From assembly GCA_902796825.1 (NCBI GenBank), contig CADBQQ010000053.1:1-46371 (forward strand): a stretch of DNA of 46,371 nt, given 5' to 3'. Positions within the stretch are counted from its first letter, which is position 1. Each line of letters starts with the position of its first letter. A program made the translations under genes and the position numbers. The notes under the pieces were generated by a model. It saw only the letters and a program-made list of their open reading frames with translations, was not told the origin of the DNA and made no database searches. Shown here in pieces: positions 944 to 44,238 of the stretch. The stretch is from an uncultured bacterium. Its GTDB lineage: Bacteria > Cyanobacteriota > Vampirovibrionia > Gastranaerophilales > Gastranaerophilaceae.

Positions 944-972
944 TAGACAGTTGTGCAGGTATTTGTTATAAT
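944..972 (+). promoter_or_regulatory. Near-consensus sigma-70 promoter, TAGACA-N17-TGtTATAAT
   Basis: TAGACA at 944-949, 17-nt spacer, TG at 964-965 and TATAAT at 967-972. It points into a stretch the ORF track leaves unannotated. Confidence 0.55.
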
Positions 973-1054
973 TAACGTTAAGGGTAGTATCACCAACCTT
1001 TGCCCACACACGTATTTTACTAAGAAATCGGTGGTAGAAAAGGACGGTAAAGCT

Positions 1055-1120: not shown

Positions 1121-1226
1121 TCATCATAGGGTATACTAAGTGAAGTCCTAAGGAAGTCACATTTTCTTAGGGCTTCCCCCTATATGCATATTATTTACTA
1201 TTTTTAATAATTTGTCAACCCTTGTG

Positions 1227-1637: not shown

Positions 1638-3724
1638 TTTTGAAGTTGTTTAATTTTTTCTTGAATATTTGTTATAAGTTCTTTGTCGTTATTGTGTTTG
1701 ATAAATAACTTATAATTTTTTACGGCATCTTCAATTTTGCCTTGATGTTCAAGAGCCATAGCCAATGCGTAATATGCATAACCAAAATTGTAGTCGTTAT
1801 CGAGCTCTATGACTTTTTCAAAGCTTTTTTGAGATTCAATCAGGTTGTTGTCGTTTGCATAAGCCAATCCCAAATTAAACCATCCGTCTGTATAATCAGG
1901 ATTTACTATAATTGACTTTTGATAATAGTTAACTGCTTTTGTATTATCTTCTTTTAATTTGTAGATGTTTCCGATTTTTAAAAGAGTTACTGCGTCATTA
2001 GGTACAAGCTGTAGTGCGTCTTGATAATTCTTTACTGCAGCATCATAATTTTTTTCTTTGTAGTTTTTGTCGCCCTCAAGAATGAAATCTTCATTTTTTT
2101 TCATTGTAACTTCGGATTTTTTCGGCGGATTATTTGCAGATTGTGTATTGTCCATAGAAAGACTTATGGACGGTAATTCTCCTGTTGCACCTAAAGTTGT
2201 TTGAACGGTTGTTTTTGGAGTATAAAGTGATGAAATGAAATCACTGTATTCCGCGCTGTATAAAGTCTTGTCAGGATTTATTGCAATAGCTTTTTCATAG
2301 TTTTCGGAAGCTTTTGTATTGTTGCCGTCTGCTCGATATGCTTTTGCCAGCCCGTAATATACATAACCGTCTTTGTAGCCGGATTTTATAGCTGTTTTGA
2401 AATCTTCAATTGCACCTTCGTAATTTTCTTGTTCAATGCGCTCATGTCCGCGTGAGACAAGGGCATTGTTAAGGTTATCTTTTACGGCTTTTTCACTTTT
2501 TGCCGTAAGGAGTTCTTTGTATAATTCTATTGATTCATCGTATTGTTTTAGAGCGTGTAATGCCAATGCTTTGTTGAATTTGATGTTATAATCGTCAGGC
2601 TGTACTTCAAGTACTTCGTTGTAGTATTTTATTGCATTTTCAAAGTCTTTTTTGTTGTGGTAGCAGTTAGCAATATCTTTTTTGTAGTCTATATTGCTGC
2701 TATCTTTTGTCAATGCTATGGCGTAATTTTCTATTGCTTTGTCGTAATTTTTTAAATCTTTGTATACGGAGGCAATATTTGCATACCCTTTAACATCATT
2801 AGGGAAAGCTTTTATGTACATATTGTACTGCTCGATTGCTTCGGTATTTTTTTGCATGTCTGCAAGTAAATTAGCATAATCAAGTCTTACTGTATTCAAG
2901 TTAGGTATTTTTTTTAAAACTATTTGGTATTGATTGTAAGAATCCTCGTTTCTTCCTAAATCTTGATATGCCTGCGCAAGCCCTAAATGAGCAGAATCAT
3001 TATCAGCATCAAGCTCAATTGCTTTTTCTAAAATTTCTACTGATTTTTCAGGTACATCAGAATTTAAAAGCGCGATGCCGTATTGCGCGTATCTTTTAAA
3101 AGATTCAGGATTTTTGTTGTAAACCTGTTGATACTGTTTTGCGGCATTGGCATAATCCTTTACCGCAAGATAAGAGTCTGCCAAGTTTTCGCGAGACTCT
3201 GCGTGTCCTGAATACGTTTCGAGAAACAAATTATAATCTTTGATTGCTTCTTTGTAATTTTTCAGTTGGTAATTTACGTTACCTAAATTTAAGTAGTTAT
3301 ATTTGTATTCCGGAAAAATGTCCAGAGCCTTGTTATAAGCTTCCAGTGCCTCATTATATTTCCCGCGATTTTCGTATATGTTTCCTATGCTTATATATAT
3401 AAAAGCATCTTCAGGATTTAAATCAATAACTTTTTTATAGATTTCAAGAGCTTTGTCATAATCGTCGATTTCGGTGTATATGCCTGCAAGCTTAGTGTAT
3501 AACATAACGTCAGGCCCTGAGTCTGCAATTGCTTGCTCAAGTTTTGATATTGCTTCTTTTAAATCCTGCTGGTGTTCGGCAGTGCATGCTTCTTGATACA
3601 ATCTGCTTGCGTTAGGACTCATTTTTGCTTCACAAGGCAAAGCTGTAAATGCAAATGATGATACTAAGATTGTTATTAATAATTTTTGTTTTATATTCAT
3701 ATTCCTAAATCTCTTTAATGACAT
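1634..3724 (-). CDS. Secreted tetratricopeptide (TPR) repeat protein
   Basis: 696-aa ORF with many 34-aa repeats of the type Y..LG..Y...G.Y..AI..Y..AL...P. It has an N-terminal signal-like segment KLLITILVSSFAFTALPCEA. The start could instead be ATG 3700. Confidence 0.85.
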   Translation of the reverse strand: MSLKRFRNMNIKQKLLITILVSSFAFTALPCEAKMSPNASRLYQEACTAEHQQDLKEAISKLEQAIADSGPDVMLYTKLAGIYTEIDDYDKALEIYKKVIDLNPEDAFIYISIGNIYENRGKYNEALEAYNKALDIFPEYKYNYLNLGNVNYQLKNYKEAIKDYNLFLETYSGHAESRENLADSYLAVKDYANAAKQYQQVYNKNPESFKRYAQYGIALLNSDVPEKSVEILEKAIELDADNDSAHLGLAQAYQDLGRNEDSYNQYQIVLKKIPNLNTVRLDYANLLADMQKNTEAIEQYNMYIKAFPNDVKGYANIASVYKDLKNYDKAIENYAIALTKDSSNIDYKKDIANCYHNKKDFENAIKYYNEVLEVQPDDYNIKFNKALALHALKQYDESIELYKELLTAKSEKAVKDNLNNALVSRGHERIEQENYEGAIEDFKTAIKSGYKDGYVYYGLAKAYRADGNNTKASENYEKAIAINPDKTLYSAEYSDFISSLYTPKTTVQTTLGATGELPSISLSMDNTQSANNPPKKSEVTMKKNEDFILEGDKNYKEKNYDAAVKNYQDALQLVPNDAVTLLKIGNIYKLKEDNTKAVNYYQKSIIVNPDYTDGWFNLGLAYANDNNLIESQKSFEKVIELDNDYNFGYAYYALAMALEHQGKIEDAVKNYKLFIKHNNDKELITNIQEKIKQLQK

Positions 3725-4066
3725 TTTAACACGAAATTCTGGTTATGCAAAAAAAGATGTGTTGTCAAATTTTATTATATGCAAAAGTGTAAATAAGTTC
3801 ATTGTTCTATAATTTTTGTAAAAATTATAATAAAAATTTTACAAAAATTATGAATAGTGTGAGAAGATATGCATAAGCTGAATGCAATAATATAAGCATG
3901 TTTCATCCGTTTAATCTTTTCAAAATTATATATTTGCGTCCGGCAAAATTTTGCCAAAATTTTAGTCTAAAGTGCGTGAATTTATAAAAACAAAATTACT
4001 TAATAAAATTTTACAATCCAAAACCCTTGTATTTTGGCAAAAAAATCAGATTTCGTGTTTTATAAC

Positions 4067-4095
4067 TGGAAAAGTTATTACAATTGTGGTATAAT
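4067..4095 (+). promoter_or_regulatory. Extended -10 promoter (TGGAAA-N17-TATAAT with a TGg extension upstream of the hexamer) for the 53-aa ORF
   Basis: TG at 4087-4088 and TATAAT at 4090-4095, with a weak -35 TGGAAA at 4067-4072. Confidence 0.5.
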
Positions 4096-4148
4096 TTAAC
4101 CTGTAAATGGGGTCGAAAATAACTTAAGTTGTAAAAGGAGTAGGTTCT

Positions 4149-4310
4149 ATGGTAACAGCAGTTTCTTCAGAGAAAAAAGTGAAAAAAGTTAAATCACCCT
4201 TTATGGATGAATTTGAAGCTTACTTGAAAAATCAATGTGCAAAGACAACTTTTAACGGTACCGAACTTGAATCATTTTCCTGGTACAAAAAAGTGTTAGG
4301 GCTCGTTTAA
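4149..4310 (+). CDS. Small 53-aa protein (MVTAVSSEKKVKKVKSPFMDEFEAYLKNQCAKTTFNGTELESFSWYKKVLGLV), unknown function; below the ORF-track length cutoff
   Basis: AAAGGAG SD sits 8 nt upstream of ATG 4149. There is an upstream extended -10 promoter and a downstream intrinsic terminator at 4335-4366. Confidence 0.55.
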   Translation: MVTAVSSEKKVKKVKSPFMDEFEAYLKNQCAKTTFNGTELESFSWYKKVLGLV

Positions 4311-4317
4311 CTTTATT

Positions 4318-4623
4318 TTACAATTTTTTTACTAAAAAATCGGCAAGTGTTTTGTGCCGATTTTTTATGTCTATTTGAGTTAACAAGCAATTTTTATTTT
4401 TTATGCCGGATTTTTCTCTTTTTAGAAACAATTCGCTTTGCAATGTGCCGGCATCAAGCACATATTTGTCAAGTTTGGTGCTGACAAGTTCAAGCAAATT
4501 CTCAATATCCCTTTTGTCTGCGGGGTCATATTCATTTTTTATGGCTTGCTTGAGAATAGTTATGCTGCTTCTAATTTCGTCCATGCTCTCCCGTAAATCA
4601 GTAAATTTGTCCTCAGGTGTCAT
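4318..4623 (-). CDS. Hypothetical helical 101-aa protein
   Basis: AAAGGAG SD lies 7 nt upstream of ATG 4623. I recognise no family. Confidence 0.6.
   Translation of the reverse strand: MTPEDKFTDLRESMDEIRSSITILKQAIKNEYDPADKRDIENLLELVSTKLDKYVLDAGTLQSELFLKREKSGIKNKNCLLTQIDIKNRHKTLADFLVKKL
4335..4366. terminator. Bidirectional intrinsic terminator hairpin
   Basis: AAAAATCGGCA-agtgttttg-TGCCGATTTTT, an 11-bp stem with A and T runs on either side. It lies inside the last ~15 codons of the convergent 4318..4623 ORF. Confidence 0.65.
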
Positions 4624-4722
4624 TTTTGTTCTCCTTTATAAATTTATGTTACACATATATGTCCGTATAGCAAAATATTAGTCCATATAATAAAAGATGT
4701 CAACATATAGAAAACAAATTCA

Positions 4723-4728
4723 TAGAAT
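4723..4728 (+). promoter_or_regulatory. -10-like TAGAAT placed 6 nt upstream of ATG 4735; candidate leaderless promoter
   Basis: catTAGAATaatcttATG, with no SD and TCAACA 17 nt upstream. Confidence 0.4.
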
Positions 4729-4734
4729 AATCTT

Positions 4735-4938
4735 ATGATTGAAAACAATATATCAACTCTCATAGGGAAAAGAAGAATGACTGTAGCAGAAACAGCAAGA
4801 TTAGCTAAATTGAAATATACTACAGTACAAAATCTATACAATGACAAAACAAAGGGCATAGATTTCAAGACTATGAACGGTCTGTGTTTTGCTCTTGATT
4901 GCACTCCGGGTGACTTGTTTACATATATTCCGGATTAA
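4735..4938 (+). CDS. Small XRE/Cro-type HTH transcriptional regulator (YozG-like)
   Basis: 67 aa. MTVAETARLAKLKYTTVQNLYNDKTKGIDFKTMNGLCFALDCTPGDLFTY is a typical short Cro/C1 HTH. Confidence 0.85.
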   Translation: MIENNISTLIGKRRMTVAETARLAKLKYTTVQNLYNDKTKGIDFKTMNGLCFALDCTPGDLFTYIPD

Positions 4939-4950
4939 GTATTTGCCTGA

Positions 4951-5823
4951 TTACTTTTGGAATACAAATATATACTCGTGGTTAAAGATTGAAAATCCGC
5001 CGGCAAGCGCTCTATAGCGCCATAGATTTGCGGTGCGGCCTTTTGCGCGTTCATTGCCGTTTATATCTTTAACAATTGTTGATTTCAATTTAAATCCGAG
5101 TTTGCGCATTCTATTCATACATTCAAAGCCAAGCGGTTGAACTTCGGAATTTTTGTAGCTGTCGCCGATTATAAGACACGCAAAACGGCCTTTTTCCAGC
5201 AAATCATAACCGTTTTTGGCAACTTTTTCAAACATATCATAAAATTCTTCTGTTGTTGCGCAGTTCGACAAATCTTCTTTTTTGTCCGAAAACTTGATAA
5301 TATCGTCATAAGGCGGATGAAGCATCAAGAATTGTGCTTTTTCTTCCCCCATAATTTCAAGTCTTGCCTGAACTTTTTCTACGGCATCTTTGCTTGTTGA
5401 ATCCGAGCAAATAATATTTACGTCAGTTACGAGTTGTTTTGGAGTGAATTTTTGGCTTACGCTGTCAACTAAATCTTGTTTTAATTCAACACCAATGCAA
5501 CGTCTATTCATATTGATTGCTTCAATACCGGACGTTCCTGAACCAAAGAACATATCAAGAACTATATCATTTTTCTTTGTATAGCGCTCATACATTTGCT
5601 GGGCAATTTGGGGAATATAATTGCCGTGATATTCGTTAGAATGTCCGTGTTCTTTCAACCTTGCAGGGAATAGCCACAGGGAATTTGTGATTACGTGAGC
5701 GTAATCTTTCCAACGATTAAGATTTATATCGCTATATTTAGTGGTTTTAATATTTGGAGTTTGAACAACTCTTAGGTCTGCTTTTTTTTGCGGTTTTAAC
5801 TTGGTATTTGATAATCTTGCCAA
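4951..5823 (-). CDS. SAM-dependent N6-adenine/N4-cytosine-type methyltransferase, apparently orphan
   Basis: Motif I-like VLDMFFGSGTSG comes first, then motif IV-like LHPPYDD, and the C-terminus is NHEYIFVFQK. I see no recognisable restriction endonuclease next to it. Confidence 0.8.
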   Translation of the reverse strand: MARLSNTKLKPQKKADLRVVQTPNIKTTKYSDINLNRWKDYAHVITNSLWLFPARLKEHGHSNEYHGNYIPQIAQQMYERYTKKNDIVLDMFFGSGTSGIEAINMNRRCIGVELKQDLVDSVSQKFTPKQLVTDVNIICSDSTSKDAVEKVQARLEIMGEEKAQFLMLHPPYDDIIKFSDKKEDLSNCATTEEFYDMFEKVAKNGYDLLEKGRFACLIIGDSYKNSEVQPLGFECMNRMRKLGFKLKSTIVKDINGNERAKGRTANLWRYRALAGGFSIFNHEYIFVFQK

Positions 5824-7739: not shown

Positions 7740-7892
7740 TTAAGTTTTTAAGTCGTTGAGACGTTAAGTCGCTAAGTCGTTGAGTCGTTAAGTTCAGTAC
7801 GGTGCTTGCGCACAAATAATTTAGCCTATTTAGCCTGTAGGGCTGAAAAGAACTTATAGACTTAACGTCTTAACGTCCCATAGTCTTATCGT
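7740..7892. repeat. TAAGT-core octamer inverted-repeat element, CG variant
   Basis: Left arm 7740-7795 has 7 tandem units TTAAGTCG-like. Right arm 7852-7891+ has units ACTTAACG/TCTTAACG-like, which are the reverse complement. The central ~55 bp contains TTTAGCCT x2 and GGGCTGAAAAG. It lies between convergent mutL and the ROK kinase and overlaps the kinase's last 7 codons and stop. Confidence 0.85.
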
Positions 7893-8838
7893 CCTCAAAC
7901 AGCATACTTGCGCCTATTACACCTGCGCTGTTGCCAAGTTCAGCAGGAACGATTTGGACACTTTCTCGCGCAACTTTCATTGCGCGTGCTTTAATTGTTC
8001 TGCGAATAGGTTCCAATATAAGTTCGCCTGAGTCTGCAACTCCGCCGCCAATGATTACTTTTTCAGGATTAAGAAGATTGATTACACTTGTTAATCCCAG
8101 TCCGATGTATTCTCCTATAGTTTCAAATATACGTTTTGCAACCACATCACCTGCTTCAGCTGCTTTTGCAACAATGTAAGGAGTAATTTCTCCATCACCT
8201 GCCATCTCGCTAAATTTTGCGGCTTTACCGCCTTTAATGTAGTCCTGAGCCATTGCAACAATTGCAGGACCGGAAGCGAAAGCTTCAAAACATCCTGTAT
8301 CTCCGCAGCCGCATAAAGGACCATCTTTCATTTGGAGTTTGATATGTCCGATTTCGCCTGCTGCGTTTGCGCAACCACGAACAAGCTGTCCGTTAATTAC
8401 AATACCCGAACCTATTCCGGTTCCGACTGTGATACAGATAAAATTCCGGCATCCTCTGCCTGCGCCGAATTTCATTTCGCCTAAAGCTGCACATCTTACA
8501 TCATTATCAACTTTTGTTGGTATGTGAAATTCATCTTCTATCATTTTTGCAATAGGTACATTTACCCAGCCCGGAATGTTTGGGGCAAGTTTTACTATCC
8601 CGTTTTGATAATCAATTTGCCCGGGAAAATCAAATCCAATCGCTTCAATATTTGTTTCATTGGTATTTGTCTCTTTCATAAGATCGCGTATTGCTTGTTT
8701 TATGTTATTGACGGTATATTCATAACCCATTTTTGCGTAAGTCGGAACGCTGTTTGAGTAAATTATTTTTCCTTGTTCATCTACGAGTGCTATTTTAACA
8801 TTTGTTCCGCCGACGTCTATGCCTATTCTTTTTCCCAT
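7870..8838 (-). CDS. ROK-family sugar kinase (glucokinase-like)
   Basis: IGIDVGGTN ATP-binding start and ROK zinc motif GPLCGCGDTGCFE. I moved the start to ATG 8838 (MGKRIG), which has AAGGAG 7 nt upstream. Confidence 0.88.
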   Translation of the reverse strand: MGKRIGIDVGGTNVKIALVDEQGKIIYSNSVPTYAKMGYEYTVNNIKQAIRDLMKETNTNETNIEAIGFDFPGQIDYQNGIVKLAPNIPGWVNVPIAKMIEDEFHIPTKVDNDVRCAALGEMKFGAGRGCRNFICITVGTGIGSGIVINGQLVRGCANAAGEIGHIKLQMKDGPLCGCGDTGCFEAFASGPAIVAMAQDYIKGGKAAKFSEMAGDGEITPYIVAKAAEAGDVVAKRIFETIGEYIGLGLTSVINLLNPEKVIIGGGVADSGELILEPIRRTIKARAMKVARESVQIVPAELGNSAGVIGASMLFEDDKTMGR

Positions 8839-8894
8839 TTTTGTTCTCCTTCTTATAGTGTGAGTATAGCATGAAAGCGAAAGAATAGATGACA

Positions 8895-9020
8895 AAGTGA
8901 ATAAGTGATTAGGTGAATAGGTGATTAAGTTCGTTACAAACTATTTATTAATGTTATTTAAGCACTCTGTTGACCTAAAGCTAAAAACCGAAATGAACTT
9001 AATCACTTAATCACTTAACT
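8895..9020. repeat. TAAGT-core octamer inverted-repeat element, GA variant
   Basis: Left arm AAGTGAAT AAGTGATT AGGTGAAT AGGTGATT AAGT at 8895-8934. Right arm GAACTT AATCACTT AATCACTT AACT at 8995-9020, which is the reverse complement. A ~60-bp AT-rich centre separates them. Confidence 0.85.
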
Positions 9021-9064
9021 CTCTCTACATGTAAACTTTTGTAAACATCCCTTTGTCCAATTCT

Positions 9065-9092
9065 TAAAGTTTTCATAGTGAAATGCCGAAGT
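9065..9092 (+). promoter_or_regulatory. Sigma-28 (FliA)-type promoter, TAAAGTTT-N12-GCCGAAGT
   Basis: Close to the established consensus TAAA-N15-GCCGATAA (E. coli TAAAGTTT-N11-GCCGATAA). It lies ~45 nt upstream of ATG 9140. The same -10 octamer and spacing recur at 13824-13851. Confidence 0.6.
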
Positions 9093-9139
9093 AGTACATG
9101 AAAGGACAGAGTTCGAAGTAATTTATAGAAAGGAAAGCA

Positions 9140-11065
9140 ATGGGATTATCATCAGCACAAGCTAGATTATTAACCATAACAGCCAGAAAATCTGACTGCG
9201 AATTCCAATCTATGAGTTTGTCGCATCAGAAATTGGCACTTTCAAGAGATATGGAAAGTATTACTGATGAATATCAGAATGCTTTGAATGCAACTAAGTT
9301 AGTTTATGATTTTTATGGTACAGGCGGAAGCCAGATGGCATTGAATTATTCATTATTGATGACACCGTCTGTTTATAATGATTTTTCTCCGAGATTTGTG
9401 ACAGATGCAACTAACAGGGTTATATTGAACCCTGAGTTGGCAAATGTTGCAAGGGCTTGCGGTATACCTATGGAGGGGTATGGCGGAACTAATTCTGACG
9501 ATATGAGGGCTGCTTTTATTCAAGCATTGGCGAATGAAGGAATTTTGAGTGCTTCTGAAGTTGCTTCTATTGAAAACGTTGCTTATGACAACGCTGCAGG
9601 CTTGGGATACGGTGTTGTGACGGATGAAGCTATAGAATACTTGACTTATGAGGACTTAATAAGCCAGTTGAAATCAACAGGTATCAATGATATGAATGAT
9701 TATGGCTTGTATCTGGGCGATTTCTACACTTTATATTCTAATGGTGAAGAAAATTGGAGATTGTTGTCCTCACGTGATAATACCAAATTTGGCGATGCCG
9801 GTTGGAATCTTGAAGAATATAAGACAGGAAATAATAAAACAACAACATCTGTTTATTCTACTGATGGTGGCAATGCTGCTACAGGTATATATGTAAAAAG
9901 ATCAGGGGATACTAATGGTTATAAATATGAAACTACTACAACGCCATGTTATGTGAGTGATCTTGGAAAATACTATTTAAATGGTAACACCTATGCAAAG
10001 TATAATGGGCGTGATAATAATTATGATTATTTTAACAATCCTATAACAACACCAATAAAATTTACAGATTTATTAACCGGTGAGGATCAATATACATTTG
10101 CAATTGATTCCAAGAACGGTGTTGTTACAGATGCTGCGTATATGCAAAGATTGATGTGCGGAGACGACAACGGGGACACCAAATCTGTATTAGGATGGAT
10201 GACAGATCAATTGTTGTCGGTTCTTGGTGAAACCGATTTGAATATTCAAGCACTGGATTATGCAAGAGGTTGCATATTAGATTTAATTTGGCCGGATAAT
10301 AGTATTCAAAATGCAGCTACAAGTTATCCTACAAGTTCAGAAGTAAAACATGACGGTGATAAATATGTCAAGAATGCTTCCGGTAAAGATTGTTATAACG
10401 AAACATCAGGTAATAAATGGAACGATACCGTATCACAAGCTGAAAATGTACTTGGTTTTTATACAAATACCAGTTCAGGTATATCAATCAACTTAAACAA
10501 CATTGCTAAGGTATTTATGACGTCATTTGTTGACTATATTCAAGGTATGGAAAATACTAACTATGCTTATGGTCCTATGAAAAAAAGTAATGCAACGTTG
10601 TTCAATTCAAAAACAGATACAAATGTGGTATTTGAACAGCTTGTAGGTTATACTACAGATACCGGCGCGGATACTACTCTTGCAAACTTCTACGATACAA
10701 TGTTCAACATAATCTGTACTCAAGGTTGGACAGAAAACGGAAGAATAGATGATGCCGATTATATGCAAGAAATGATGAAAAACGGCATGGTATATATGTC
10801 TACAATCGGCCACGACGGAACTTACGGTCAAAGCAACTATACAACAGACAAATATGTTTTAGAAGTTGCAGACGAAGAAGCAATCACCCGCGCAGAAGCT
10901 AAATATAAAGCAGCAAAAGCAAGAATTGAAAATAAAGAAAACACTCTTGACTTGAAAATGAAAAGTCTTGATACAGAAATTTCTTCACTAAATCAAGAAT
11001 ATGAAACAGCAAAAACATTGATTAAAAACGCTGTAGATAAATCGTTTACAAGGTATCAAGCTTAA
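9140..11065 (+). CDS. Uncharacterised 641-aa protein with helical N- and C-termini and an N/T/Y/G/D-rich core; candidate flagellum-coexpressed or exported protein
   Basis: Long ORF with an AAAGGAAAG SD-like element. The N-terminal helix is LSSAQARLLTITARKSDCEFQ... and the C-terminal coiled-coil-like segment is NTLDLKMKSLDTEISSLNQEYETAKTLIKNAVDKSF. I recognise no family motif. Confidence 0.8.
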   Translation: MGLSSAQARLLTITARKSDCEFQSMSLSHQKLALSRDMESITDEYQNALNATKLVYDFYGTGGSQMALNYSLLMTPSVYNDFSPRFVTDATNRVILNPELANVARACGIPMEGYGGTNSDDMRAAFIQALANEGILSASEVASIENVAYDNAAGLGYGVVTDEAIEYLTYEDLISQLKSTGINDMNDYGLYLGDFYTLYSNGEENWRLLSSRDNTKFGDAGWNLEEYKTGNNKTTTSVYSTDGGNAATGIYVKRSGDTNGYKYETTTTPCYVSDLGKYYLNGNTYAKYNGRDNNYDYFNNPITTPIKFTDLLTGEDQYTFAIDSKNGVVTDAAYMQRLMCGDDNGDTKSVLGWMTDQLLSVLGETDLNIQALDYARGCILDLIWPDNSIQNAATSYPTSSEVKHDGDKYVKNASGKDCYNETSGNKWNDTVSQAENVLGFYTNTSSGISINLNNIAKVFMTSFVDYIQGMENTNYAYGPMKKSNATLFNSKTDTNVVFEQLVGYTTDTGADTTLANFYDTMFNIICTQGWTENGRIDDADYMQEMMKNGMVYMSTIGHDGTYGQSNYTTDKYVLEVADEEAITRAEAKYKAAKARIENKENTLDLKMKSLDTEISSLNQEYETAKTLIKNAVDKSFTRYQA

Positions 11066-11089: not shown

Positions 11090-11467
11090 ATGGCTGACGA
11101 AATTAAATCTATTGATGAATTAAGAAAGGCTCAAGCAGCAGCTCAGGCACAAGGAACATCTATCACAAACTATGACCGTTGGGAAGAAATTCTTGAAGAT
11201 TTTGAAACAGCAGGAATTCAATCGACAGGAAGTTTTGAGGGAGATGTTAGGCTTCATGGCCAAGTTATGGAAGAAATACAGGCTTTTCTTGAGGAAGCAC
11301 AAAGAGTCCAAAACCAACAACAAAACGCTCCAAATCAAGATGACAACATTAAAGTAGATAACAAAACAAGTTATGATAAAGAACAAAATATAAAAGCCAA
11401 TGCCGCAAACGCAACCAGTTCAACTATTATGGCAGACTATATGAAATATTACCATTTGCTCGGTTAG
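11090..11467 (+). CDS. Small acidic, Q-rich 125-aa protein co-transcribed with the 641-aa gene
   Basis: 24-nt gap after the upstream stop and a GAGG SD. Unknown family. Confidence 0.65.
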   Translation: MADEIKSIDELRKAQAAAQAQGTSITNYDRWEEILEDFETAGIQSTGSFEGDVRLHGQVMEEIQAFLEEAQRVQNQQQNAPNQDDNIKVDNKTSYDKEQNIKANAANATSSTIMADYMKYYHLLG

Positions 11468-13375: not shown

Positions 13376-13789
13376 TTATTTTGTAAATAATTCTGCAAAT
13401 GGTCCTTCAGGATCTTGAATATGTGCTTCTACAGCTGCGTTTTCCGCAAGTTTCATTGCCGGTGTAACAACAACATTAATCCCATTTGTTACACTCGCTA
13501 CTTGTGCTGCGGTTACTTTGTAATTGTAACCTAAGCTTGCCAAAATCTCGTTTGTAGTATCTGCAATTTCTTTATCTTCTTTGCTGAATTTTGCAAATTG
13601 TACTCCGTAAATATTTTGCGGATTTTGGGTTAATAAATCTGTCTCGTTTTCCAAACCCTTGAATGCTGCTTCTGTTTTTACAACTTCTTTTGCTTCATCG
13701 CTTTCTTGAGCTTTTTTTGAAGCTTCTTGTCCTACAAGTAAGTTGTAATTCGCGTAATTTTTTCCTAAATCATTAAACTTGATTGTCAT
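13376..13789 (-). CDS. Uncharacterised 137-aa protein under a sigma-28-type promoter
   Basis: I moved the start to ATG 13789 (MTIKFNDLGK), which has AAAGGAG 8 nt upstream. The track's longer ORF would swallow its own promoter. Confidence 0.7.
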   Translation of the reverse strand: MTIKFNDLGKNYANYNLLVGQEASKKAQESDEAKEVVKTEAAFKGLENETDLLTQNPQNIYGVQFAKFSKEDKEIADTTNEILASLGYNYKVTAAQVASVTNGINVVVTPAMKLAENAAVEAHIQDPEGPFAELFTK

Positions 13790-13823: not shown

Positions 13824-13851
13824 ACTTCGGCATATAGTTTAATAATCTTTA
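13824..13851 (-). promoter_or_regulatory. Sigma-28 (FliA)-type promoter, TAAAGATT-N12-GCCGAAGT
   Basis: Minus-sense read is cTAAAGATTattaaactatatGCCGAAGTaaaaaatg, ~35 nt upstream of ATG 13789. The -10 octamer and spacing are identical to 9065-9092. Confidence 0.6.
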
Positions 13852-14008: not shown

Positions 14009-14233
14009 ATGACAAGTGTAAACGGAATATTTGGGAATAAAGGAATAAATTATACAACAAGTGTTCATGCACAGAATATAACTAAAACGAATAATTTGTT
14101 ATTCGGCGGCAAAGTTGAACCTGCAGGTGATGCAGTACAGTTCTCAAAAACTCCGGGTAATACAGGAGTGGCTGAAGCAACAGCAAGAGGTACATTAGCA
14201 CAATTAGACTTGATTGAACAAATCGGGCTATAA
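14009..14233 (+). CDS. Uncharacterised 74-aa N/T/G-rich protein
   Basis: AAAAGGAG SD sits 7 nt upstream, and the terminator at 14263-14290 follows. Confidence 0.6.
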   Translation: MTSVNGIFGNKGINYTTSVHAQNITKTNNLLFGGKVEPAGDAVQFSKTPGNTGVAEATARGTLAQLDLIEQIGL

Positions 14234-36055: not shown

Positions 36056-37402
36056 ATGCAGGAACTTGATAAAAGCGAAATTGAAGATTTAAAGGTTCGT
36101 GTTCGTCAAAAACTTGACGAAACTCAGTTATATTCTTATAAAGGCTCTGTATCAAAACTTTTAGGGCTTACTGTAGAGGTTAAACTTCCGGGATTAAAAA
36201 TCGGAGATTTATGTTTTATTGAAACTTATGACGGCAGGCAAAAACCTGCTGAAGTTCAAGCTTTTAAAGGTGAAGTTGCGCAGTTATCTCTTTTATTAGA
36301 CGGTGAGGGAATTGGTCAGGGAAGTTTGGTGACTTCGACAGGACGTCCGATTATTATTCCTGTGGGAGATTTTTTGCTCGGCAGGTTAATTGACCCAATG
36401 GGAAACCCTCTTGACGGAAAACCTTTAGATACGTCAAATGCGCAATGGCGCCCGATTGAGGGGCCTCCTCCGGGACCTTTTGAAAGACCGATTATTACCG
36501 AACAATTTTCAACTGGTGTTCGAGCAATTGATGGATGTATGACAATGGGATGCGGACAGCGTTTGGGTTTATTTGCAGGCTCAGGTGTCGGTAAAAGTAC
36601 ATTGCTCGGTATGATTGCAAGAAATTCAGATGCAGATGTAAACGTAGTAGCTTTAATCGGAGAACGTGGCAGAGAGGTTAAGGAATTTATTGAAGATGCT
36701 CTTGGTCCTGAGGGTATGGAACGCTCTGTTCTTGTGTGTTCAACGGGCGACAAGCCGCCGTTAATCCGCCAGAAATGTCTGCTTGCCGCAACAGCGGTCT
36801 GTGAATATTTTAGAGATCAGGGCAAAAAAGTTTTCTTGATGACTGATACCGTAACGCGTTGTGCTATGGCAGGACGTGAAGTAGGGCTATCTCTTGGAGA
36901 ACCGCCTACAATGAAAGGTTATCCGCCATCAATTTTCTCATGGCTCCAAAAAGCATTAGAACGTGCCGGTAACAGCGAAAAAGGCTCAATTACCGCACTA
37001 TATACAGTGCTTATGGAGGGAGATGATATCACTGACCCGATTGTAGATATTGTGCGCGGTATTGTAGATGGACACATTTTCTTATCAAGAAAAGTTGCAG
37101 AATCAAACCATTATCCTGCAATTGATGTGTTGGGAAGCATTTCCCGTTTAATGAGCGCAATTGCAAGCCCTGAGCATAAGCAAGCTGCTGCAAAATTAAG
37201 AACAATTATGTCTTTATACCGAGAAAATAAGGACCTTATTGATGTTGGTATGTATCAACCTGGGTCTAACCCTCGTCTTGACACTGCAATCGAGATGATG
37301 CCGAAAGTTAACGCATTTTTACAGCAAAGAACTGACGAAAGTGTAACAATGGAAGGCACTATCGGCGAACTTGTCAATATGATGGAAGGTGTTGAAATTT
37401 AG
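36056..37402 (+). CDS. fliI: Flagellum-specific (type III secretion) ATPase FliI
   Basis: Walker A GSGVGKSTLLGMIARN, Walker B FLMTDTVTRCAMA, F1-beta-like fold; 448 aa. Confidence 0.9.
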   Translation: MQELDKSEIEDLKVRVRQKLDETQLYSYKGSVSKLLGLTVEVKLPGLKIGDLCFIETYDGRQKPAEVQAFKGEVAQLSLLLDGEGIGQGSLVTSTGRPIIIPVGDFLLGRLIDPMGNPLDGKPLDTSNAQWRPIEGPPPGPFERPIITEQFSTGVRAIDGCMTMGCGQRLGLFAGSGVGKSTLLGMIARNSDADVNVVALIGERGREVKEFIEDALGPEGMERSVLVCSTGDKPPLIRQKCLLAATAVCEYFRDQGKKVFLMTDTVTRCAMAGREVGLSLGEPPTMKGYPPSIFSWLQKALERAGNSEKGSITALYTVLMEGDDITDPIVDIVRGIVDGHIFLSRKVAESNHYPAIDVLGSISRLMSAIASPEHKQAAAKLRTIMSLYRENKDLIDVGMYQPGSNPRLDTAIEMMPKVNAFLQQRTDESVTMEGTIGELVNMMEGVEI

Positions 37403-39132: not shown

Positions 39133-40557
39133 ATGCAAAATAAAACCCTGAATAATAAACGTACAAATATACAAGCCCCGATTGTAGAAGCTCTTAAAGC
39201 ATATTACAATAATCCGGCTTATCAATTTCATATACCGGGACATACGCGCGGATTAGGAACACTTCCGGATTTTCGTAATCTAATGGGGAAAAAAGCTCTT
39301 TCTCTTGATACAACAGATGAATTTGATAATCTTGGGACTTTGACACCTGCAACAGGTCCTATAAAAGAGGCACAAGAGTTGGCCGCGCAGGCTTTTGGAG
39401 CAAAAGAAACTTTCTTTTTGTTAAACGGTTCAACAATAGGTAACCTTGCTATTGCAATGGGATTAACTAAAAAAGGACAAAAGGTTATAGTTAACCGTAA
39501 TTGTCATCGTTCTATTTTGACAGGTTTAATAATTTCAGGCGCTGAACCTTTGTGGATTTTGCCTGAAAAGTTTGAAGATTGGGGTTTGTGGGGTAATATT
39601 AATCCTGAGTCTGTAGAAAAATTATTAAAAGAAAATGATGATGTTTCTATGGTTTGGATTACAAATCCTACCTATGAGGGCGTTGTTTCTGATGTAAAAT
39701 CAATTGCTTCTATCTGCAAAAAATATAATGTCCCTTTGATTGTAGATGAGGCTCATGGTTGTTTGTGGAATTTCAATGACAAGCTCCCTGAAACTTCATT
39801 AAAGTTGGGTGCGGATGTTGTGGTTCACTCTTTGCATAAAACAGGCGGTAGTATGAGCCAGTCATCAATGCTGCATATTAGTGAAAATTCAAAAATCAAT
39901 GCTGATGATGTTGAACGTGCTTTAATGCTCTTACATACAACAAGTCCGTCTTTAATTTTACTTGGCAGTCTGGATGCTGCAAGAGCAAATTTGCAAAGTG
40001 TGAGAGGACAAAAACAGTTAAGTCAGGCGATTAATAATGCAAAATATTTACGTGCAGAAGTTGACAAGATGGAGCATATTCATCAATTAAAATCTGATTT
40101 TGGTTATAAAACAGATGTTACTAAGATTTTTATAAAAGCAGACGGACTTTCGGGAAAAAGATTAGAATCTATTTTGGAAATAGATTTTGGTATAGAAGTT
40201 GAAAGTGCATCTGATGCAGGTATTTTGATTTTGAGTAATATCGGTAATAAACGCAGTGATTTTGAATATCTGGCCGAATGTTTGCACAAAATTGATATTC
40301 ACGATTATAAAGATATTTATTACCTTGAGAATAAAAAACACATGCCTATGTTAACTCCTATTATTAAAAAAAGTTTGCGGGAAGCTTATTTTTCGGAAAA
40401 AGAGGTTGTTCCAAAATCTGAAGCAGTCGGAAGATTATCGGGAGAAGTCGTTGCAGAATGCCCTCCTGGAATTTCTATTTTGCTTCCGGGAGAACTTATA
40501 ACAGAAGCGCATTTACCTTATCTGGCAGATTATAATTTTATAGAAGTTATTAAATAA
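39133..40557 (+). CDS. PLP-dependent Orn/Lys/Arg decarboxylase family protein
   Basis: HIPGHTRG and HSLHKTGGSMSQSS (PLP lysine). I chose ATG 39133 as the start because TATATT sits 6 nt upstream; the track uses TTG 39118. Confidence 0.82.
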   Translation: MQNKTLNNKRTNIQAPIVEALKAYYNNPAYQFHIPGHTRGLGTLPDFRNLMGKKALSLDTTDEFDNLGTLTPATGPIKEAQELAAQAFGAKETFFLLNGSTIGNLAIAMGLTKKGQKVIVNRNCHRSILTGLIISGAEPLWILPEKFEDWGLWGNINPESVEKLLKENDDVSMVWITNPTYEGVVSDVKSIASICKKYNVPLIVDEAHGCLWNFNDKLPETSLKLGADVVVHSLHKTGGSMSQSSMLHISENSKINADDVERALMLLHTTSPSLILLGSLDAARANLQSVRGQKQLSQAINNAKYLRAEVDKMEHIHQLKSDFGYKTDVTKIFIKADGLSGKRLESILEIDFGIEVESASDAGILILSNIGNKRSDFEYLAECLHKIDIHDYKDIYYLENKKHMPMLTPIIKKSLREAYFSEKEVVPKSEAVGRLSGEVVAECPPGISILLPGELITEAHLPYLADYNFIEVIK

Positions 40558-41329
40558 TACTTGCAAATTGAATAAAATATTCTTCAATTACATTCATAAT
40601 CATAGGTAAAATCCATATTAAAATTGCCGCACCTAAAACAGGTTTAAAAAGAAAGCTTAATTGGAAAACGTTTACTTGAGGTGCGGTTCTTGAAATTACA
40701 CCTAAAATTATGTCCTGCCCCAGTGTAGCAAGAAGAACAGGAGATGCGATTTGAAGCCCCATATACAAAGTATTTGAGGATAATTTTATAAGTAAGTCCA
40801 TTTTAACAAGATTGGCAAGCGGTATGTGTGATGCGTAAATCGGAAAAATTTCGCAGCTTTTTAAAAGAGCGTTAAACATCCAGTAAACTCCGCCCACACT
40901 GATAAAAATTAAAATTCCTAAAATCGCCATTATGTTTGTCAAAATCGAAACTTGCGAAGATGATGTCGGGTCAAGCACTGTAGCAGATGTTAAACCCATC
41001 TGCATATTTATCATTTCCGCCCCGCACTCAACCGCAATTGTAATAAGGCGCGCCATATAACCAATCATTGCACCTACTGCAATATTTAATAAAATTGATA
41101 GTGCAAATGAATCGCATTGCATGACTTTTTCAGGGCTTAAAAACGGAAGCATAAACACTGAAATAATTATAGCCAGAGGGATTTTAACAAGAGCAGGAAT
41201 GTCTTTTCTGTTGAATATCGGTGCCATTCTAAAAAATCCTAAAAGGCGTGCAAAAATTAACGTACCGGCCATTAAGTACATATTCATTTGCGGAAATATT
41301 TTCATTAACTCGCTAAGAATTTGGTCCAT
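40550..41329 (-). CDS. fliR: Flagellar export apparatus protein FliR
   Basis: Polytopic membrane protein of 259 aa, located directly after fliQ, with a FliR-like N-terminus. Its 3' end overlaps the convergent decarboxylase gene by 8 bp. Confidence 0.82.
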   Translation of the reverse strand: MDQILSELMKIFPQMNMYLMAGTLIFARLLGFFRMAPIFNRKDIPALVKIPLAIIISVFMLPFLSPEKVMQCDSFALSILLNIAVGAMIGYMARLITIAVECGAEMINMQMGLTSATVLDPTSSSQVSILTNIMAILGILIFISVGGVYWMFNALLKSCEIFPIYASHIPLANLVKMDLLIKLSSNTLYMGLQIASPVLLATLGQDIILGVISRTAPQVNVFQLSFLFKPVLGAAILIWILPMIMNVIEEYFIQFASII

Positions 41330-41332
41330 TTA

Positions 41333-41821
41333 TTACCGTCCAAGAATTTTTTTCGTTTCAACAAGATCAGGCTTAGGCATAGGAGTTTTTGGGGCGGCAG
41401 TATATTTTTCTCTTTGATATTTATCTATATATGGAGCTTTCCCGGGATGTTTCATTATGTATTCAATGTCATCCCTGCTTTTGAATTTATCTTTCATCTC
41501 ATCTGCAAACGGAGTTGTATACTTGTGATAATTAGCATCAAGTACAAAATTTTCGCTCTGAGGAACAGCTGTAAAAGCCAAAACAACTCCCTCTTGGAAT
41601 AGATTTGTTAAAAGTCTTGTAAAGCCGACACCGCCAATTATTATTACAAGGAAAACTCCGAGAATTTTAGGTGCTGCCGCAATAGTTTGTTCTTGAACCT
41701 GCGTAACAGCCTGCAAAATTCCGACTACAAGACCAATACCTGCTGCTACAAGTACGCAAGGCATTGAAATGGTAAGCATTACCAGAAATCCTCTAGCCAT
41801 ATATTCCATCAACATTTCCAT
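41333..41821 (-). CDS. fliQ: Flagellar export apparatus protein FliQ with a ~70-aa hydrophilic C-terminal extension
   Basis: The first ~90 aa match FliQ (GILQAVTQVQEQTIAAAPKILGVFL). The ORF then continues for 72 more residues (SENFVLDANYHKY...KKILGR). GAGGTG SD. Confidence 0.85.
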   Translation of the reverse strand: MEMLMEYMARGFLVMLTISMPCVLVAAGIGLVVGILQAVTQVQEQTIAAAPKILGVFLVIIIGGVGFTRLLTNLFQEGVVLAFTAVPQSENFVLDANYHKYTTPFADEMKDKFKSRDDIEYIMKHPGKAPYIDKYQREKYTAAPKTPMPKPDLVETKKILGR

Positions 41822-41833
41822 TTCAATTCACCT

Positions 41834-42472
41834 CTAATTGTAACTTGATACAAGCCCCTGTACTATTAATGCCCAACCGTCAACCGCAATAAATATAAGC
41901 AATTTGAACGGCATAGAAATAATTGTCGGAGATAACATAAACATGCCGAGTGCTAACAAAATATTTGCAACGACCAAATCCAATATAATAAATGGTACAA
42001 ATATTATAAATCCGATTTCAAAGGATGTTTTTAGTTCACTGATAATATATGCCGGAGCTACATCCCATACTGACAAATCATCCGGTGATGATGGTTTAGT
42101 TTTATGAGTCATACTGACAAAGAATTCTAAATCTCCTTGCCGGGTTTGTTTCAGCATAAATTCTTTTAGCGGTTTTGCGCCTTCTGTCAATGCCGCGACA
42201 ACATCATGATTTTTGTTATACGGTACAGAACCCATATCGTACATTTTTTGGAAAGTTCCGCCCATTGTATAAAAAGTCAAAATCATAGACAAACCTATAA
42301 TTACAATAGCAGGAGGTACTTGTTGAGTTCCCATTGCAGTTTTTAACATTGAAAATACAACGACAAACCTCAAAAAACTTGTCATTGAGCAAAAAACAAA
42401 CGGTAACAATGAAAACATTGTTATCATTACAAGCATTTGTATTATAGGGTTTAGAGTCTGTACTTGATCCAT
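41834..42472 (-). CDS. fliP: Flagellar export apparatus protein FliP
   Basis: TSFLRFVVVFSMLKTAMGTQQVPP and PFKLLIFIAVDGW are typical FliP segments. Confidence 0.92.
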   Translation of the reverse strand: MDQVQTLNPIIQMLVMITMFSLLPFVFCSMTSFLRFVVVFSMLKTAMGTQQVPPAIVIIGLSMILTFYTMGGTFQKMYDMGSVPYNKNHDVVAALTEGAKPLKEFMLKQTRQGDLEFFVSMTHKTKPSSPDDLSVWDVAPAYIISELKTSFEIGFIIFVPFIILDLVVANILLALGMFMLSPTIISMPFKLLIFIAVDGWALIVQGLVSSYN

Positions 42473-42485
42473 TATAAGTTATCCT

Positions 42486-42995
42486 TTATAGTTCATTGAT
42501 TTTCATTGCCATTTCTTTCATTGTGGAAAATCCATGTTCAACTGATTTATTTACATCCAAATTCACCATTTTACCGGTACTCATTCCTTTTGAAATATTT
42601 TTTCTTCTTAATCTTGGTGATTGCGGATTATTACTATTTATTAGTTCAAGATGAACTTCTTTTTTAGGGTATATTGTGTCTAAATTTTCGTTTTCAACGG
42701 ATGTAAAATACGGTTTATCAACAAATTTTGAATTGTTCGTTTTTCCATTTTCAAGTTTTGATATTAAAGAAGTTCTGTCCATATCAGAAGCGATAAGAAA
42801 GCGTTCGGCTCCTGCTCGAACAACCATGAGTGATTTGCGCGGATTAACACTCATAGTTTCTTCTATTTCAAGAAATTTTGAAGCTTTAGAGCTGAAACTG
42901 CCACTCATAACTTTTTTGTATACAAATAATGCAAAGCAGATTAAACCTGACATTGCAAGCGTATAAACCGTAAAATTCATTATGTAATGACCCAT
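42486..42995 (-). CDS. fliO: FliO-like flagellar protein
   Basis: Single N-terminal TM followed by LEIEETMSVNPRKSLMVVRAGAERFLIAS, which is the FliO pattern, and a position upstream of fliP. It is longer than usual at its C-terminus. Confidence 0.62.
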   Translation of the reverse strand: MGHYIMNFTVYTLAMSGLICFALFVYKKVMSGSFSSKASKFLEIEETMSVNPRKSLMVVRAGAERFLIASDMDRTSLISKLENGKTNNSKFVDKPYFTSVENENLDTIYPKKEVHLELINSNNPQSPRLRRKNISKGMSTGKMVNLDVNKSVEHGFSTMKEMAMKINEL

Positions 42996-43035
42996 ATTTT
43001 GTCTCCCTCAAGTCTTATTATTTTAGTAATTTGAA

Positions 43036-43464
43036 TTATATATTGTCATCATCTAATTCAAAATCACTGTAGTCAAAATCTTCGCCGTTTTCAGACTCCT
43101 CTTTGTCGAAGTCTTCTTCATCTTCAATTTCGTCATCATATTCTTCATCGTATTCTTCGCCTTCTTCCTCCTGCGGCAAATCTTCTTCGGTATTTTCACT
43201 ATATTCTTCTGAATGTTCTTCACTTTGTTGAGCAATGACATTATTGATTCTCACACCGTATCTGTCATTAACTATTACAAGTGAACCTGTTGCAACAGGT
43301 CTGCCTTCAACTTTCAATGTTACGTTATTGTCATAAAGTGAAGCTAAATCAATAACGAGTCCGTTTTCAATGTCTTTTAATTCTCCGAGCGTAATTTTAA
43401 CAGAATCAAGTTCTGCTTTCATTTCCACTTCAATGTTATCCCATATATTTTGATGATCACCCAT
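43036..43464 (-). CDS. Possible internally initiated 142-aa FliN-sized product (second SpoA domain plus acidic tail)
   Basis: In-frame ATG 43464 is preceded by AAGGAG (43478-43473) with an 8-nt spacer. Confidence 0.3.
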   Translation of the reverse strand: MGDHQNIWDNIEVEMKAELDSVKITLGELKDIENGLVIDLASLYDNNVTLKVEGRPVATGSLVIVNDRYGVRINNVIAQQSEEHSEEYSENTEEDLPQEEEGEEYDEEYDDEIEDEEDFDKEESENGEDFDYSDFELDDDNI

Positions 43465-44238
43465 ATTGTCATCTCCTTCATTAATTTCTTCTGATATTAA
43501 TAATTCCATATTCGGATTTATGTTAAAACTTTTTTCTTCTCCTTGAATTTCAAGGGTAAGATTTTCTATATTACTGTTATCAAAAACAACAATATCATCC
43601 ATTTCAAGGTTTTTTAAATTGTAAAGAGAAAATTTTGTTGAACCGACAATTATTTTTGCCAAAGTTTCGGTTTCTTGAAAATCTTCTTCGGAAAATTTTT
43701 CCTCATTAGATATTATTTTATCCGGAGTCAAAAGTACGTGAGGCAGTGTCATTACTATTTTCCCGGATTTTTTACTTTGAATGTCAGAATCTTCAATCAA
43801 AAAGGTTAAATTTACTATATCGAAATTTTTCCGTTTTAATTCTTTCGGATCCGGTTCATTTAAATTTTGTTTTATGGACTTGAACAAATTAGAATTAAAA
43901 TTCGTAATAACTTTTGCTTCAAGTTCTGAAATTTTATTCAGGTCAAATTTACTTTTCAATTCTCCCAGAGATTTGTCAAGAATGAGTTTTACAGCTTTGT
44001 TTGTCAGTCTGAAAAAGACTTCATAATCATTATTAATTTTGGCTTTTGTGACAAAGCAAGGTTCTTTATCTAGCAGATAGTTTATATTTTGGCTTATAGC
44101 AATTAGATTTAATTTAAAATTTTCTCCAAAAAAATCGTTAAATGAATTCTGCACAACATTAGAAAACGTGTTTTGATACCAGTTGTATTCTTTACACAAT
44201 TCCTTTGTAGCTATTGAGTTGTTGAACTTTTCATTCAT
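43036..44238 (-). CDS. Flagellar switch protein: FliM-like middle domain plus two SpoA (FliN-type) domains plus an acidic tail
   Basis: ISELEAKVITNF is FliM-like. SpoA-like 1 is IVGSTKFSLYNLKNLEMDDIVVFD...LEIQGEEKSFNINP. SpoA-like 2 is ITLGELKDIENGLVIDL...TLKVEGRPVATGSLVIVNDRYGVRI. The last ~62 aa are about two-thirds D/E. Confidence 0.8.
   Translation of the reverse strand: MNEKFNNSIATKELCKEYNWYQNTFSNVVQNSFNDFFGENFKLNLIAISQNINYLLDKEPCFVTKAKINNDYEVFFRLTNKAVKLILDKSLGELKSKFDLNKISELEAKVITNFNSNLFKSIKQNLNEPDPKELKRKNFDIVNLTFLIEDSDIQSKKSGKIVMTLPHVLLTPDKIISNEEKFSEEDFQETETLAKIIVGSTKFSLYNLKNLEMDDIVVFDNSNIENLTLEIQGEEKSFNINPNMELLISEEINEGDDNMGDHQNIWDNIEVEMKAELDSVKITLGELKDIENGLVIDLASLYDNNVTLKVEGRPVATGSLVIVNDRYGVRINNVIAQQSEEHSEEYSENTEEDLPQEEEGEEYDEEYDDEIEDEEDFDKEESENGEDFDYSDFELDDDNI

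Follow-up and report, generated by a model that had tools for sequence, protein, structure and literature searches.

We analysed a stretch of 46,371 nucleotides (nt) of DNA from an uncultured bacterium of the Gastranaerophilaceae (Cyanobacteriota; Vampirovibrionia; Gastranaerophilales), contig CADBQQ010000053.1 of assembly GCA_902796825.1, which is referred to as a whole as the window and has a G+C content of 34.8%. The gene in question (9140..11065, plus strand) encodes a protein of 641 amino acids (aa) that, as judged from its open reading frame (ORF) and from family searches, belongs to an undescribed superfamily. It is preceded by a sigma-28 (FliA)-type promoter, and the same window carries genes for a flagellar-type protein export apparatus.

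The -35 element of this promoter, TAAAGTTT, was located at 9065..9072 (+) from the sequence, from its conservation in orthologues and with a weight matrix. After a 12-nt spacer it is followed by the -10 element, GCCGAAGT, at 9085..9092 (+), which ends 47 nt before the ATG at 9140. The textbook consensus for sigma-28 is TAAAGTTT-N11-GCCGATAA (TAAA-N15-GCCGATAA). Accordingly, TAAAGTTT supplies the TAAA(GTTT) expected of a -35 element of this class, and GCCGAAGT contains the GCCGA core of the -10 element, with 5/8 positions matching GCCGATAA. The leader was delimited by comparison of orthologue upstream regions, from an inferred rather than mapped transcription start, as 9093..9139 (+). It contains ACATGAAAGGACA, which is conserved near the expected start site in those regions, and a Shine-Dalgarno sequence, GAAAGGAAAG (9128-9137). 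About 17 nt 5' of the -35 element lies a further element that is conserved among the orthologues, TGTAAAC-TTT-TGTAAACA (9030..9047, +). The promoter as a whole sits in a 244-nt intergenic gap between the ATG and a divergent ROK glucokinase gene (7870-8895, -) identified by family scan.

A loose pattern, TAAA-N14-17-GCCGA, was not enriched in the window (4 matches vs 1.9 expected), and conservation across orthologues was taken as the decisive test of the motif. Relatives of the 641-aa protein are encoded by 308 genomes, and 79 loci were fetched from species-representative genomes, with proteins 35-76% identical to the query. TAAAG-N16/17-CG[AT] was found in all but one of 76 orthologue upstream regions; the spacing was identical to that of the window (12 nt) in 72 of the 76, and was 11 nt in three. 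The orthologue consensus was TTTTAAAGTTTT-N8-AAAATGCCGTAATAC.ACATGAAAG, the -10 element reading GCCGTAAT, GCCGATAA or GTCGATAT and ending 43-55 nt 5' of the ATG. A weight matrix derived from the orthologues only, with the window excluded, scored the site at 9065-9092 at 33.2 bits. Over the 46 kb, only a second intergenic site, at 13854 (-), also exceeded 12 bits (18.5 bits), and shuffled sequence reached at most 5.9 bits. A third match to TAAA-N15-GCCGAAGT, at 23659-23685 (-), lies antisense within a DUF4127 gene and below the matrix threshold, and is probably due to chance. These results agree with the original prediction, made from the sequence alone, that TAAAGTTT-N12-GCCGAAGT at 9065-9092 is a sigma-28-type promoter for the gene starting at 9140: both the consensus match and the conservation in 75/76 upstream regions bear it out.

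Most promoters of this class (L001-L200) also carry a TGTWACA / TGTTTACA-type element, in a TTGTWACA-like form, approximately 16-27 nt 5' of the -35 element and often duplicated (TGTAAAC-N3-TGTAACA). This element could be a lineage-specific activator, repressor or UP-like site. In three divergent homologues (L020, L023, L025; 34-35% identity) it is replaced by tandem repeats, GGATA x4-5 and CATAG x4, about 60-100 nt before the ATG, which may form a different or phase-variable control region. The leaders frequently contain AAAGGGACA or AAAGGACA 12-18 nt past the -10 element, together with an AAGGA-type Shine-Dalgarno sequence (window 9093-9139, L087, L090, L118, L120, L121, L138, L201, L203). 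Such paired GGA motifs are reminiscent of the CsrA sites of flagellin mRNAs; a search of 2.1 Mb of related loci gave none of csrA, fliW, fliS and flgM.

The 641-aa protein has no signal peptide or transmembrane segment (maximum Kyte-Doolittle-19 score 0.97). An AlphaFold2 model computed with an alignment (predicted local distance difference test score, pLDDT, 79.6; predicted template modelling score, pTM, 0.56) placed a mixed alpha/beta core between an N-terminal helix, residues 2-49 (9143..9286, +), and a C-terminal helix, residues 579-640 (10874..11059, +). Both helices show a/d heptad periodicity throughout the family, in which the N-terminal one is near-invariant, and their pairing into a coiled-coil stalk is most likely. 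The residues T (10.4%), N (9.5%), G (9.1%), D (8.5%) and Y (8.0%) are abundant in the core, and both the model and the alignment mark a hypervariable, indel-rich centre at about residues 200-300 (9737..10039, +), which includes a low-confidence insert in the model at about 215-300. The frequency of the majority residue per alignment column is 0.8-0.93 at both ends of the protein and collapses, with indels, at residues 200-300. Against the closest relative, the ends are 88-94% identical, while the centre is 52% identical with 30 gapped positions. The extreme N-terminus is near-invariant in the family from residue 1. This pattern of conservation is of the flagellin type. Cysteines are kept as well (median 5 per family member), C526 being invariant and C20 present in >=90% of members. 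The layout of conserved terminal helices around a variable core, on which the original prediction rested, is thus real, but with helix lengths of about 48 and 62 aa instead of the 55 and 70 aa that had been estimated.

No family match was obtained for the protein in Pfam, NCBIfam or PHROGs, with no hit to the first two at E <= 0.01. The models for Flagellin_N/C (PF00669, PF00700), Flg_bb_rod and Flg_bbr_C (PF00460, PF06429, PF22638) and FliD gave no hit, so that the marks of flagellin, FlgL and the rod, hook and FlgK proteins were all missing. A profile of 73 homologues found nothing among PDB sequences at E <= 10, and hhalign of the family against a small flagellin alignment returned a probability of 0.1%. 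In Foldseek searches the model did not superpose on the D0/D1 domains of flagellin. The protein has the architecture of an axial protein, with heptad helices at both termini and a variable insert, as a matter of class and not of homology. Because every tested mark of membership in the flagellin, FlgL, FlgK, rod/hook and FliD families was absent, we file it as working like, and not belonging to, the axial-protein class. The earlier failure to match the N-terminus to FliC, FlgK, FlgL or FliD was upheld by Pfam, NCBIfam, the PDB profile search and hhalign alike, and the suggested fold comparison gave no confident match to an unrelated family.

The same observations bear on the possibility that the protein is an extremely diverged true homologue of flagellin or of a hook-associated protein (FlgL, FlgK, FliD) and hence a structural part of a rotating flagellum. 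The shared layout, heptad termini with a variable centre, and the sigma-28-type promoter are what would be expected of such a homologue. However, the empty family and profile searches speak against it, as does the fact that each terminus forms one long helix and not a D0/D1 bundle. Together with the gene sets of the lineage described below, they make this a very improbable explanation.

A profile search over 1.84 billion representative proteins revealed that the 641-aa protein is one member of a large superfamily, comprising 2,918 clusters (50% identity) at E <= 1e-3 and 379 at E <= 1e-30. Members range from about 150 to 843 aa, the shortest entries probably being fragments. They have in common the N- and C-terminal helices and one pre-terminal block (FY..[LM]F..I...GW), and their cores are otherwise unrelated. 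The N-terminus follows MG[LM]AASQARLL.[IL]T.R...E[FY], and the C-terminal helix can be aligned to that of the 641-aa protein. A short type of 250-390 aa accounted for 3,575 hits, and hhalign of its family against the 641-aa family aligned the C-terminal 52 residues with a probability of 96.5% (E = 1e-9), which indicates that the two C-terminal helices are homologous. Scans of 10 long and 10 short relatives against Pfam, NCBIfam and PHROGs gave no real match, and no description of the superfamily was found in the literature searched. It is previously undescribed and lacks both a Pfam model and a PDB fold, and the original prediction of an undescribed family was understated, given a superfamily of thousands of clusters.

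Short-type genes form tandem arrays of 8-10 paralogues (L201 7820-14925; L203 3-11496; L204 99-7672). Each array is followed on its 3' side by small ORFs, among them one of 94 aa, and by a two-helix mini member of the superfamily of 107 aa (the helices-only member at L201 16673-16996), a PilZ-domain gene and folP. A sigma-28-type promoter precedes only 1-2 paralogues per array, and the others have TGnTATAAT-like -10 elements. The model of a short-type member (pLDDT 89.8) consisted of a beta-rich core flanked by helices at residues 3-47 and 234-308. Among 350,542 PDB chains, its top three Foldseek neighbours were chains of Salmonella flagellin in the cap-filament and hook-filament-junction complexes; these matches, which speak for the export proposal given below as well as for a diverged flagellin, were not significant (E = 0.03-0.3; template modelling, TM, score 0.15-0.19). 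Two copies of the homologue within 5 kb were present in L024 and in L031 (= Zag_221). The superfamily spans the Gastranaerophilales and a related lineage of Vampirovibrionia, because the housekeeping proteins of L201 are 49-59% identical to those of the Zag_111 locus and because L064 carries both an orthologue of the 641-aa protein and a short-type paralogue. So far, it has been seen only in these two lineages.

The window itself encodes parts of a flagellar export apparatus. Family models identified a FliI-type flagellar or type III secretion system (T3SS) export ATPase at 36056..37402 (+) and an export-apparatus operon at 40550..44238 (-), which consists of genes for a FliN/SctQ-like protein (43036-44238), FliO (42486-42995), FliP (41834-42472), FliQ (41333-41821) and FliR (40550-41329). 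The weight matrix found no sigma-28-type motif at these genes, as expected because they are early genes. In two related loci the association is closer: in L043, fliN-like, fliO, fliP, fliQ and fliR come immediately after the homologue, and in L027 the homologue and the operon are divergent neighbours. The protein combines three features of the Campylobacter jejuni Fed, FlaC and FspA class, namely a late promoter, no Sec signal and the presence of export apparatus genes, here FliI and FliN/O/P/Q/R in the window.

The immediate surroundings of the gene are of a different kind. The divergent ROK kinase gene is kept in 49 of the 79 loci and MutL in 30. Downstream, a 125-aa acidic ORF (11090..11467, +) begins after 24 nt and is probably co-transcribed in the window, although its membership in the transcription unit is uncertain, as it was not found downstream of the orthologues; it extends into the end of the convergent lepA gene on the other strand. 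As a conserved partner or chaperone this ORF was rejected, not being found beside the orthologues and being unrelated to the small proteins of L045 and L075. Because the downstream gene varies and the 125-aa ORF was not found elsewhere, the gene can be regarded as essentially monocistronic within a housekeeping synteny.

Such a setting would suit a cytoplasmic protein of a re-purposed sigma-28-type regulon, one that is not exported and whose helices serve intracellular oligomerisation in a cytoskeletal, scaffold or regulatory role. The lack of a Sec signal, the invariant C526 and near-invariant C20, and the presence of homologues in genomes without hook, filament or motor genes fit this explanation too, and there is a parallel in Chlamydia, where sigma-28 acts on non-flagellar late genes. 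On the other hand, the centre of the protein is hypervariable and indel-rich, with an N/T/Y/G/D composition, its extreme N-terminus is near-invariant from residue 1, and the occurrence of 8-10 diverging paralogues in tandem is a hallmark of antigenic or surface proteins and not of cytoplasmic scaffolds. On balance, we consider an intracellular role unlikely.

The surface-type composition and hypervariable centre would also be compatible with secretion or surface display by a different route (type I secretion, outer-membrane vesicles or some other system), with the promoter only co-regulating the protein with the flagellum-derived apparatus. Weak N-terminal EF-hand-type calcium-binding motifs in several other genes of the promoter class, and the general lack of clustering with flagellar genes, point in the same direction. 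Nevertheless, no other secretion genes were seen beside the gene or the arrays, the gene adjoins the fliN-OPQR operon in L043 and L027, and a conserved N-terminus with paired terminal helices is a feature used by flagellar and injectisome substrates. Export by another route thus appears quite unlikely.

The promoter class is not restricted to the 641-aa gene. The second site in the window, TAAAGATT-N12-GCCGAAGT (13824..13851, -), was identified from the sequence and with the weight matrix; it has a TTGTTAACAAATGTTACA element at 13896-13879 and lies 34 nt upstream of the strong ribosome-binding site and ATG of a 137-aa ORF (13376..13789, -), whose orthologues in L079 and L164 are likewise preceded by this promoter. 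As a candidate for FlgM this ORF was dropped, no family hit being found in support. Divergent from it, a 74-aa ORF (14009-14233, +) has a strong ribosome-binding site and no family hit; in L079 the corresponding position is taken by a paralogue of the 137-aa protein.

A metagenome scan with the pattern TTGTWACA-N10-30-TAAAGWTT-N11-12-GCCGWWAW yielded 120 loci from gut and rumen samples. Many of the genes downstream were superfamily members, and the superfamily-bearing loci that were checked had a G+C content of 31-39%. About 14 matches with TGCTGACGGTAAAGTTTACGG were discarded as a coincidence within the coding sequence of another organism. The class also precedes a gene of the GAF+HD-GYP cyclic di-GMP phosphodiesterase type (L022); in E. 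coli, the cyclic di-GMP phosphodiesterase gene yhjH/pdeH belongs to the sigma-28-dependent flagellar class. A family of 51-53 aa (MLKKI..PS.N...VEFILRGAKKRR...) recurs directly behind the promoter (L026 19202; L082, L085, L116, L117, L165, L184), as do large proteins of 340 to 1,158 aa (L069 15381; L096, L100, L119, L140, L141, L142, L168, L180), several of them with N-terminal EF-hand-like motifs and one with a weak calpain-like catalytic motif. Many of these small and very large proteins have no Pfam match beyond weak EF-hand motifs, and inspection by eye, which is not a formal prediction, revealed no Sec-type N-terminus. The large proteins are possible further cargo or effectors. In L188, which has 46% G+C and probably comes from another phylum, the scan pattern precedes a canonical flagellin gene.

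Elsewhere in the window, a Gp49/HigB-like toxin gene is paired with a helix-turn-helix antitoxin gene (dnstrm_HI1420) at 26284-26833 (+), between an ATP-binding cassette (ABC) ATPase gene and an [FeFe]-hydrogenase gene. Scanning the window for Rfam families and tRNA genes gave no hits.

The flagellar gene sets of this lineage are frequently incomplete. Zag_221, Zag_1, Zag_111 and MH_37 retain FlgB/C/(F)/G, FliE, FlhA/B and FliI/J/P/R, and lack FliC, FliD, FlgK/L/E/D/H/I, FliF/G/M and MotAB (Soo et al., 2014, supplement; PMC4040986). MEL.A1 is without filament, cap, junction and L/P rings, and flagellated Melainabacteria possess canonical flagellins (Di Rienzi et al., 2013; PMC3787301). A recent preprint reports complete flagellar sets in approximately 25% of Gastranaerophilales genomes, the remaining ones keeping genes "postulated to be involved in extracellular secretion" (bioRxiv, 2026; 10.64898/2026.04.24.720558). 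In our data, homologues with the promoter motif were present in L031 (Zag_221) and L045 (Zag_111). On a rumen contig with 35% G+C and the same promoter architecture (L157), canonical FlgI, FlgJ-N, a 90-aa ORF, FlgH, FlgN and FlgK are encoded at 882-5303, beside FlhB (1-866, -), and the canonical FlgK of a flagellated relative carries the rod/hook domains (PF00460, PF06429, PF22638). Flagellated relatives thus have ordinary hook-associated proteins, because L157 and related contigs carry canonical FlgK/FlgL. No flagellin gene of the same lineage was recovered in the related loci.

This distribution is difficult to reconcile with a diverged flagellin or hook-associated protein: members of the family are found where motor genes are lacking, and the flagellated relatives possess canonical FlgK/FlgL, just as flagellated Melainabacteria possess canonical flagellins (PMC3787301). 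The original prediction had left two branches open, a late-class component of the flagellum and an exported determinant that is co-expressed with it. The former is doubtful, because promoter-bearing homologues occur in Zag_221 and Zag_111, which are reported to lack filament, hook and motor genes, and because the flagellated relatives carry canonical FlgK/FlgL; the latter fits the data, export itself being putative.

Taken together, these findings lead us to propose, tentatively and with slightly less than even confidence, that a type III export apparatus derived from the flagellum takes the 641-aa protein as a late-class substrate, and that the protein is not a recognisable flagellin or hook-associated protein. 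According to this proposal, the gene would be transcribed alone, or with one small downstream ORF, from the conserved sigma-28 (FliA)-type late promoter, which would be read by FliA. The product, which has no Sec signal, would be soluble, its coiled-coil stalk bearing a hypervariable, N/T/Y/G/D-rich core of the surface type. The export apparatus, which would be kept throughout these bacteria, even where hook, filament or motor genes are gone, may recognise it through its conserved termini. After export, it might be polymerised or displayed outside the cell, or released; the termini possibly mediate polymerisation and leave the centre exposed at the surface.

In a more far-reaching version, gut Gastranaerophilales would employ the remnant flagellar export gate, ATPase and rod to secrete and assemble a lineage-specific superfamily of flagellin-shaped cargo proteins, whose subunits would form a surface filament or appendage, as yet unseen and non-homologous to flagellin. 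We regard this as possible, with the balance of probability clearly leaning the other way. The inventory of cargo that it implies, in which 107-aa hairpins, 250-390-aa subunits from tandem arrays, single-copy proteins of about 600 aa and dozens of further proteins without a Pfam match, and without a Sec-type N-terminus on inspection by eye, would share one promoter class, is similarly speculative.

Several observations weigh against the proposal that the protein is a late-class export substrate, in which export by a T3SS is putative. The gene usually lies away from flagellar genes, its neighbours in the 79 loci being the ROK kinase and MutL. To our knowledge, conserved cysteines are unusual for flagellar axial proteins. 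Foldseek searches of the 641-aa model against PDB and BFVD gave nothing significant, with no PDB match at E < 0.5, and the search with the short-type model was not significant either. On the side of the promoter, the 12-nt spacer is 1 nt above the sigma-28 consensus of E. coli and B. subtilis. Neither the window nor 2.1 Mb of related loci yielded a fliA gene, and of the sigma genes seen in L003, L050, L112 and L164, those in the first two scored best as RpoD, below the FliA_WhiG cut-off. Finally, no canonical late gene of the same lineage (fliC, flgM, motAB, che) was recovered, and a search with the FlgK of a flagellated relative led to related contigs in which flgN-flgK-flgL are followed by pheT, without the motif and without a flagellin gene.

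Some of these points would be explained if another alternative sigma factor read the motif, such as a SigF-like factor of cyanobacterial group 3, with no tie to the flagellar hierarchy and a resemblance to FliA that is ancestral or coincidental. This idea overlaps with the other alternatives. It would account for the fact that no fliA was found, for the flgNKL loci without the motif, and for a regulon whose members are almost all lineage-specific proteins of unknown function and not flagellin, motor or chemotaxis genes. However, both elements match TAAAGTTT-N11-GCCGATAA almost perfectly, with orthologues often exactly GCCGATAA, and the same pattern retrieved the canonical flagellin gene of another organism (L188). 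Moreover, FliA, SigD and WhiG are themselves group-3 sigma factors. We therefore consider a promoter detached from the flagellar hierarchy to be improbable.

Comparison with known systems places the proposed export substrate between several of them. With flagellin/FlgL and the wider axial class (FlgK, FlgE, rod), the 641-aa family shares conserved heptad ends, a centre variable in sequence and length, the lack of a Sec signal and the sigma-28-type promoter, and the superfamily shares multi-copy tandem paralogues, some of them under other promoter types. Unlike that class, it shows no detectable sequence or profile homology, has a single long helix per end instead of a D0+D1 bundle, keeps its cysteines, has unrelated core folds that are absent from PDB, and is also encoded where hook, filament, cap or motor genes are lacking. 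Another parallel is with the FlaC, FspA and Fed proteins of C. jejuni, which are sigma-28-dependent and exported by the flagellar T3SS, and are not parts of the flagellum; their export has been shown experimentally, in fully motile hosts. Here too, we find a late sigma-28-type promoter, no Sec signal and genes away from the flagellar clusters, and FlaC likewise keeps flagellin-like termini, its central domains being absent. In our case, by contrast, export is inferred; the family also far exceeds theirs in size, and a complete flagellum is lacking in many host genomes.

Buchnera has kept flagellar basal bodies as protein exporters, and the non-flagellated Chlamydia have a sigma-28 regulon. Similarly, in the lineage studied here, a partial flagellar set (export gate, ATPase, rod) and sigma-28-type promoters persist after the loss of motility genes. 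We know of no dedicated, expanded cargo family with a flagellin-like architecture in those two systems. There is also a resemblance to the needle, filament and tip proteins of injectisomes (the PrgI/MxiH hairpins, EspA and LcrV/IpaD), whose unit of assembly is a hairpin or coiled coil of helices contributed by the termini, and the 107-aa member has the size of a needle protein. Unlike with injectisomes, there is no sequence or fold match to these proteins, the apparatus genes score as flagellar or generic T3SS (FliI and FliN models), and rod genes are retained.

In summary, the partial flagellar gene sets of gut Melainabacteria have been a puzzle since 2013-2014, for which genome decay or "perhaps secretion" were offered as readings. 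The promoter class, together with an expanded and unannotated superfamily, provides concrete candidate cargo, and with it the secretion hypothesis becomes testable. Thousands of clusters are thereby added to the short list of families with the layout of axial proteins, and the finding opens onto a large regulon of uncharacterised proteins. The hypervariable centres suggest exposure to selection by host or phage, in a lineage that is common in human and animal guts. If the more far-reaching reading were true, the mostly "non-flagellated" Gastranaerophilales would use a flagellar remnant for a surface appendage that has so far not been seen.

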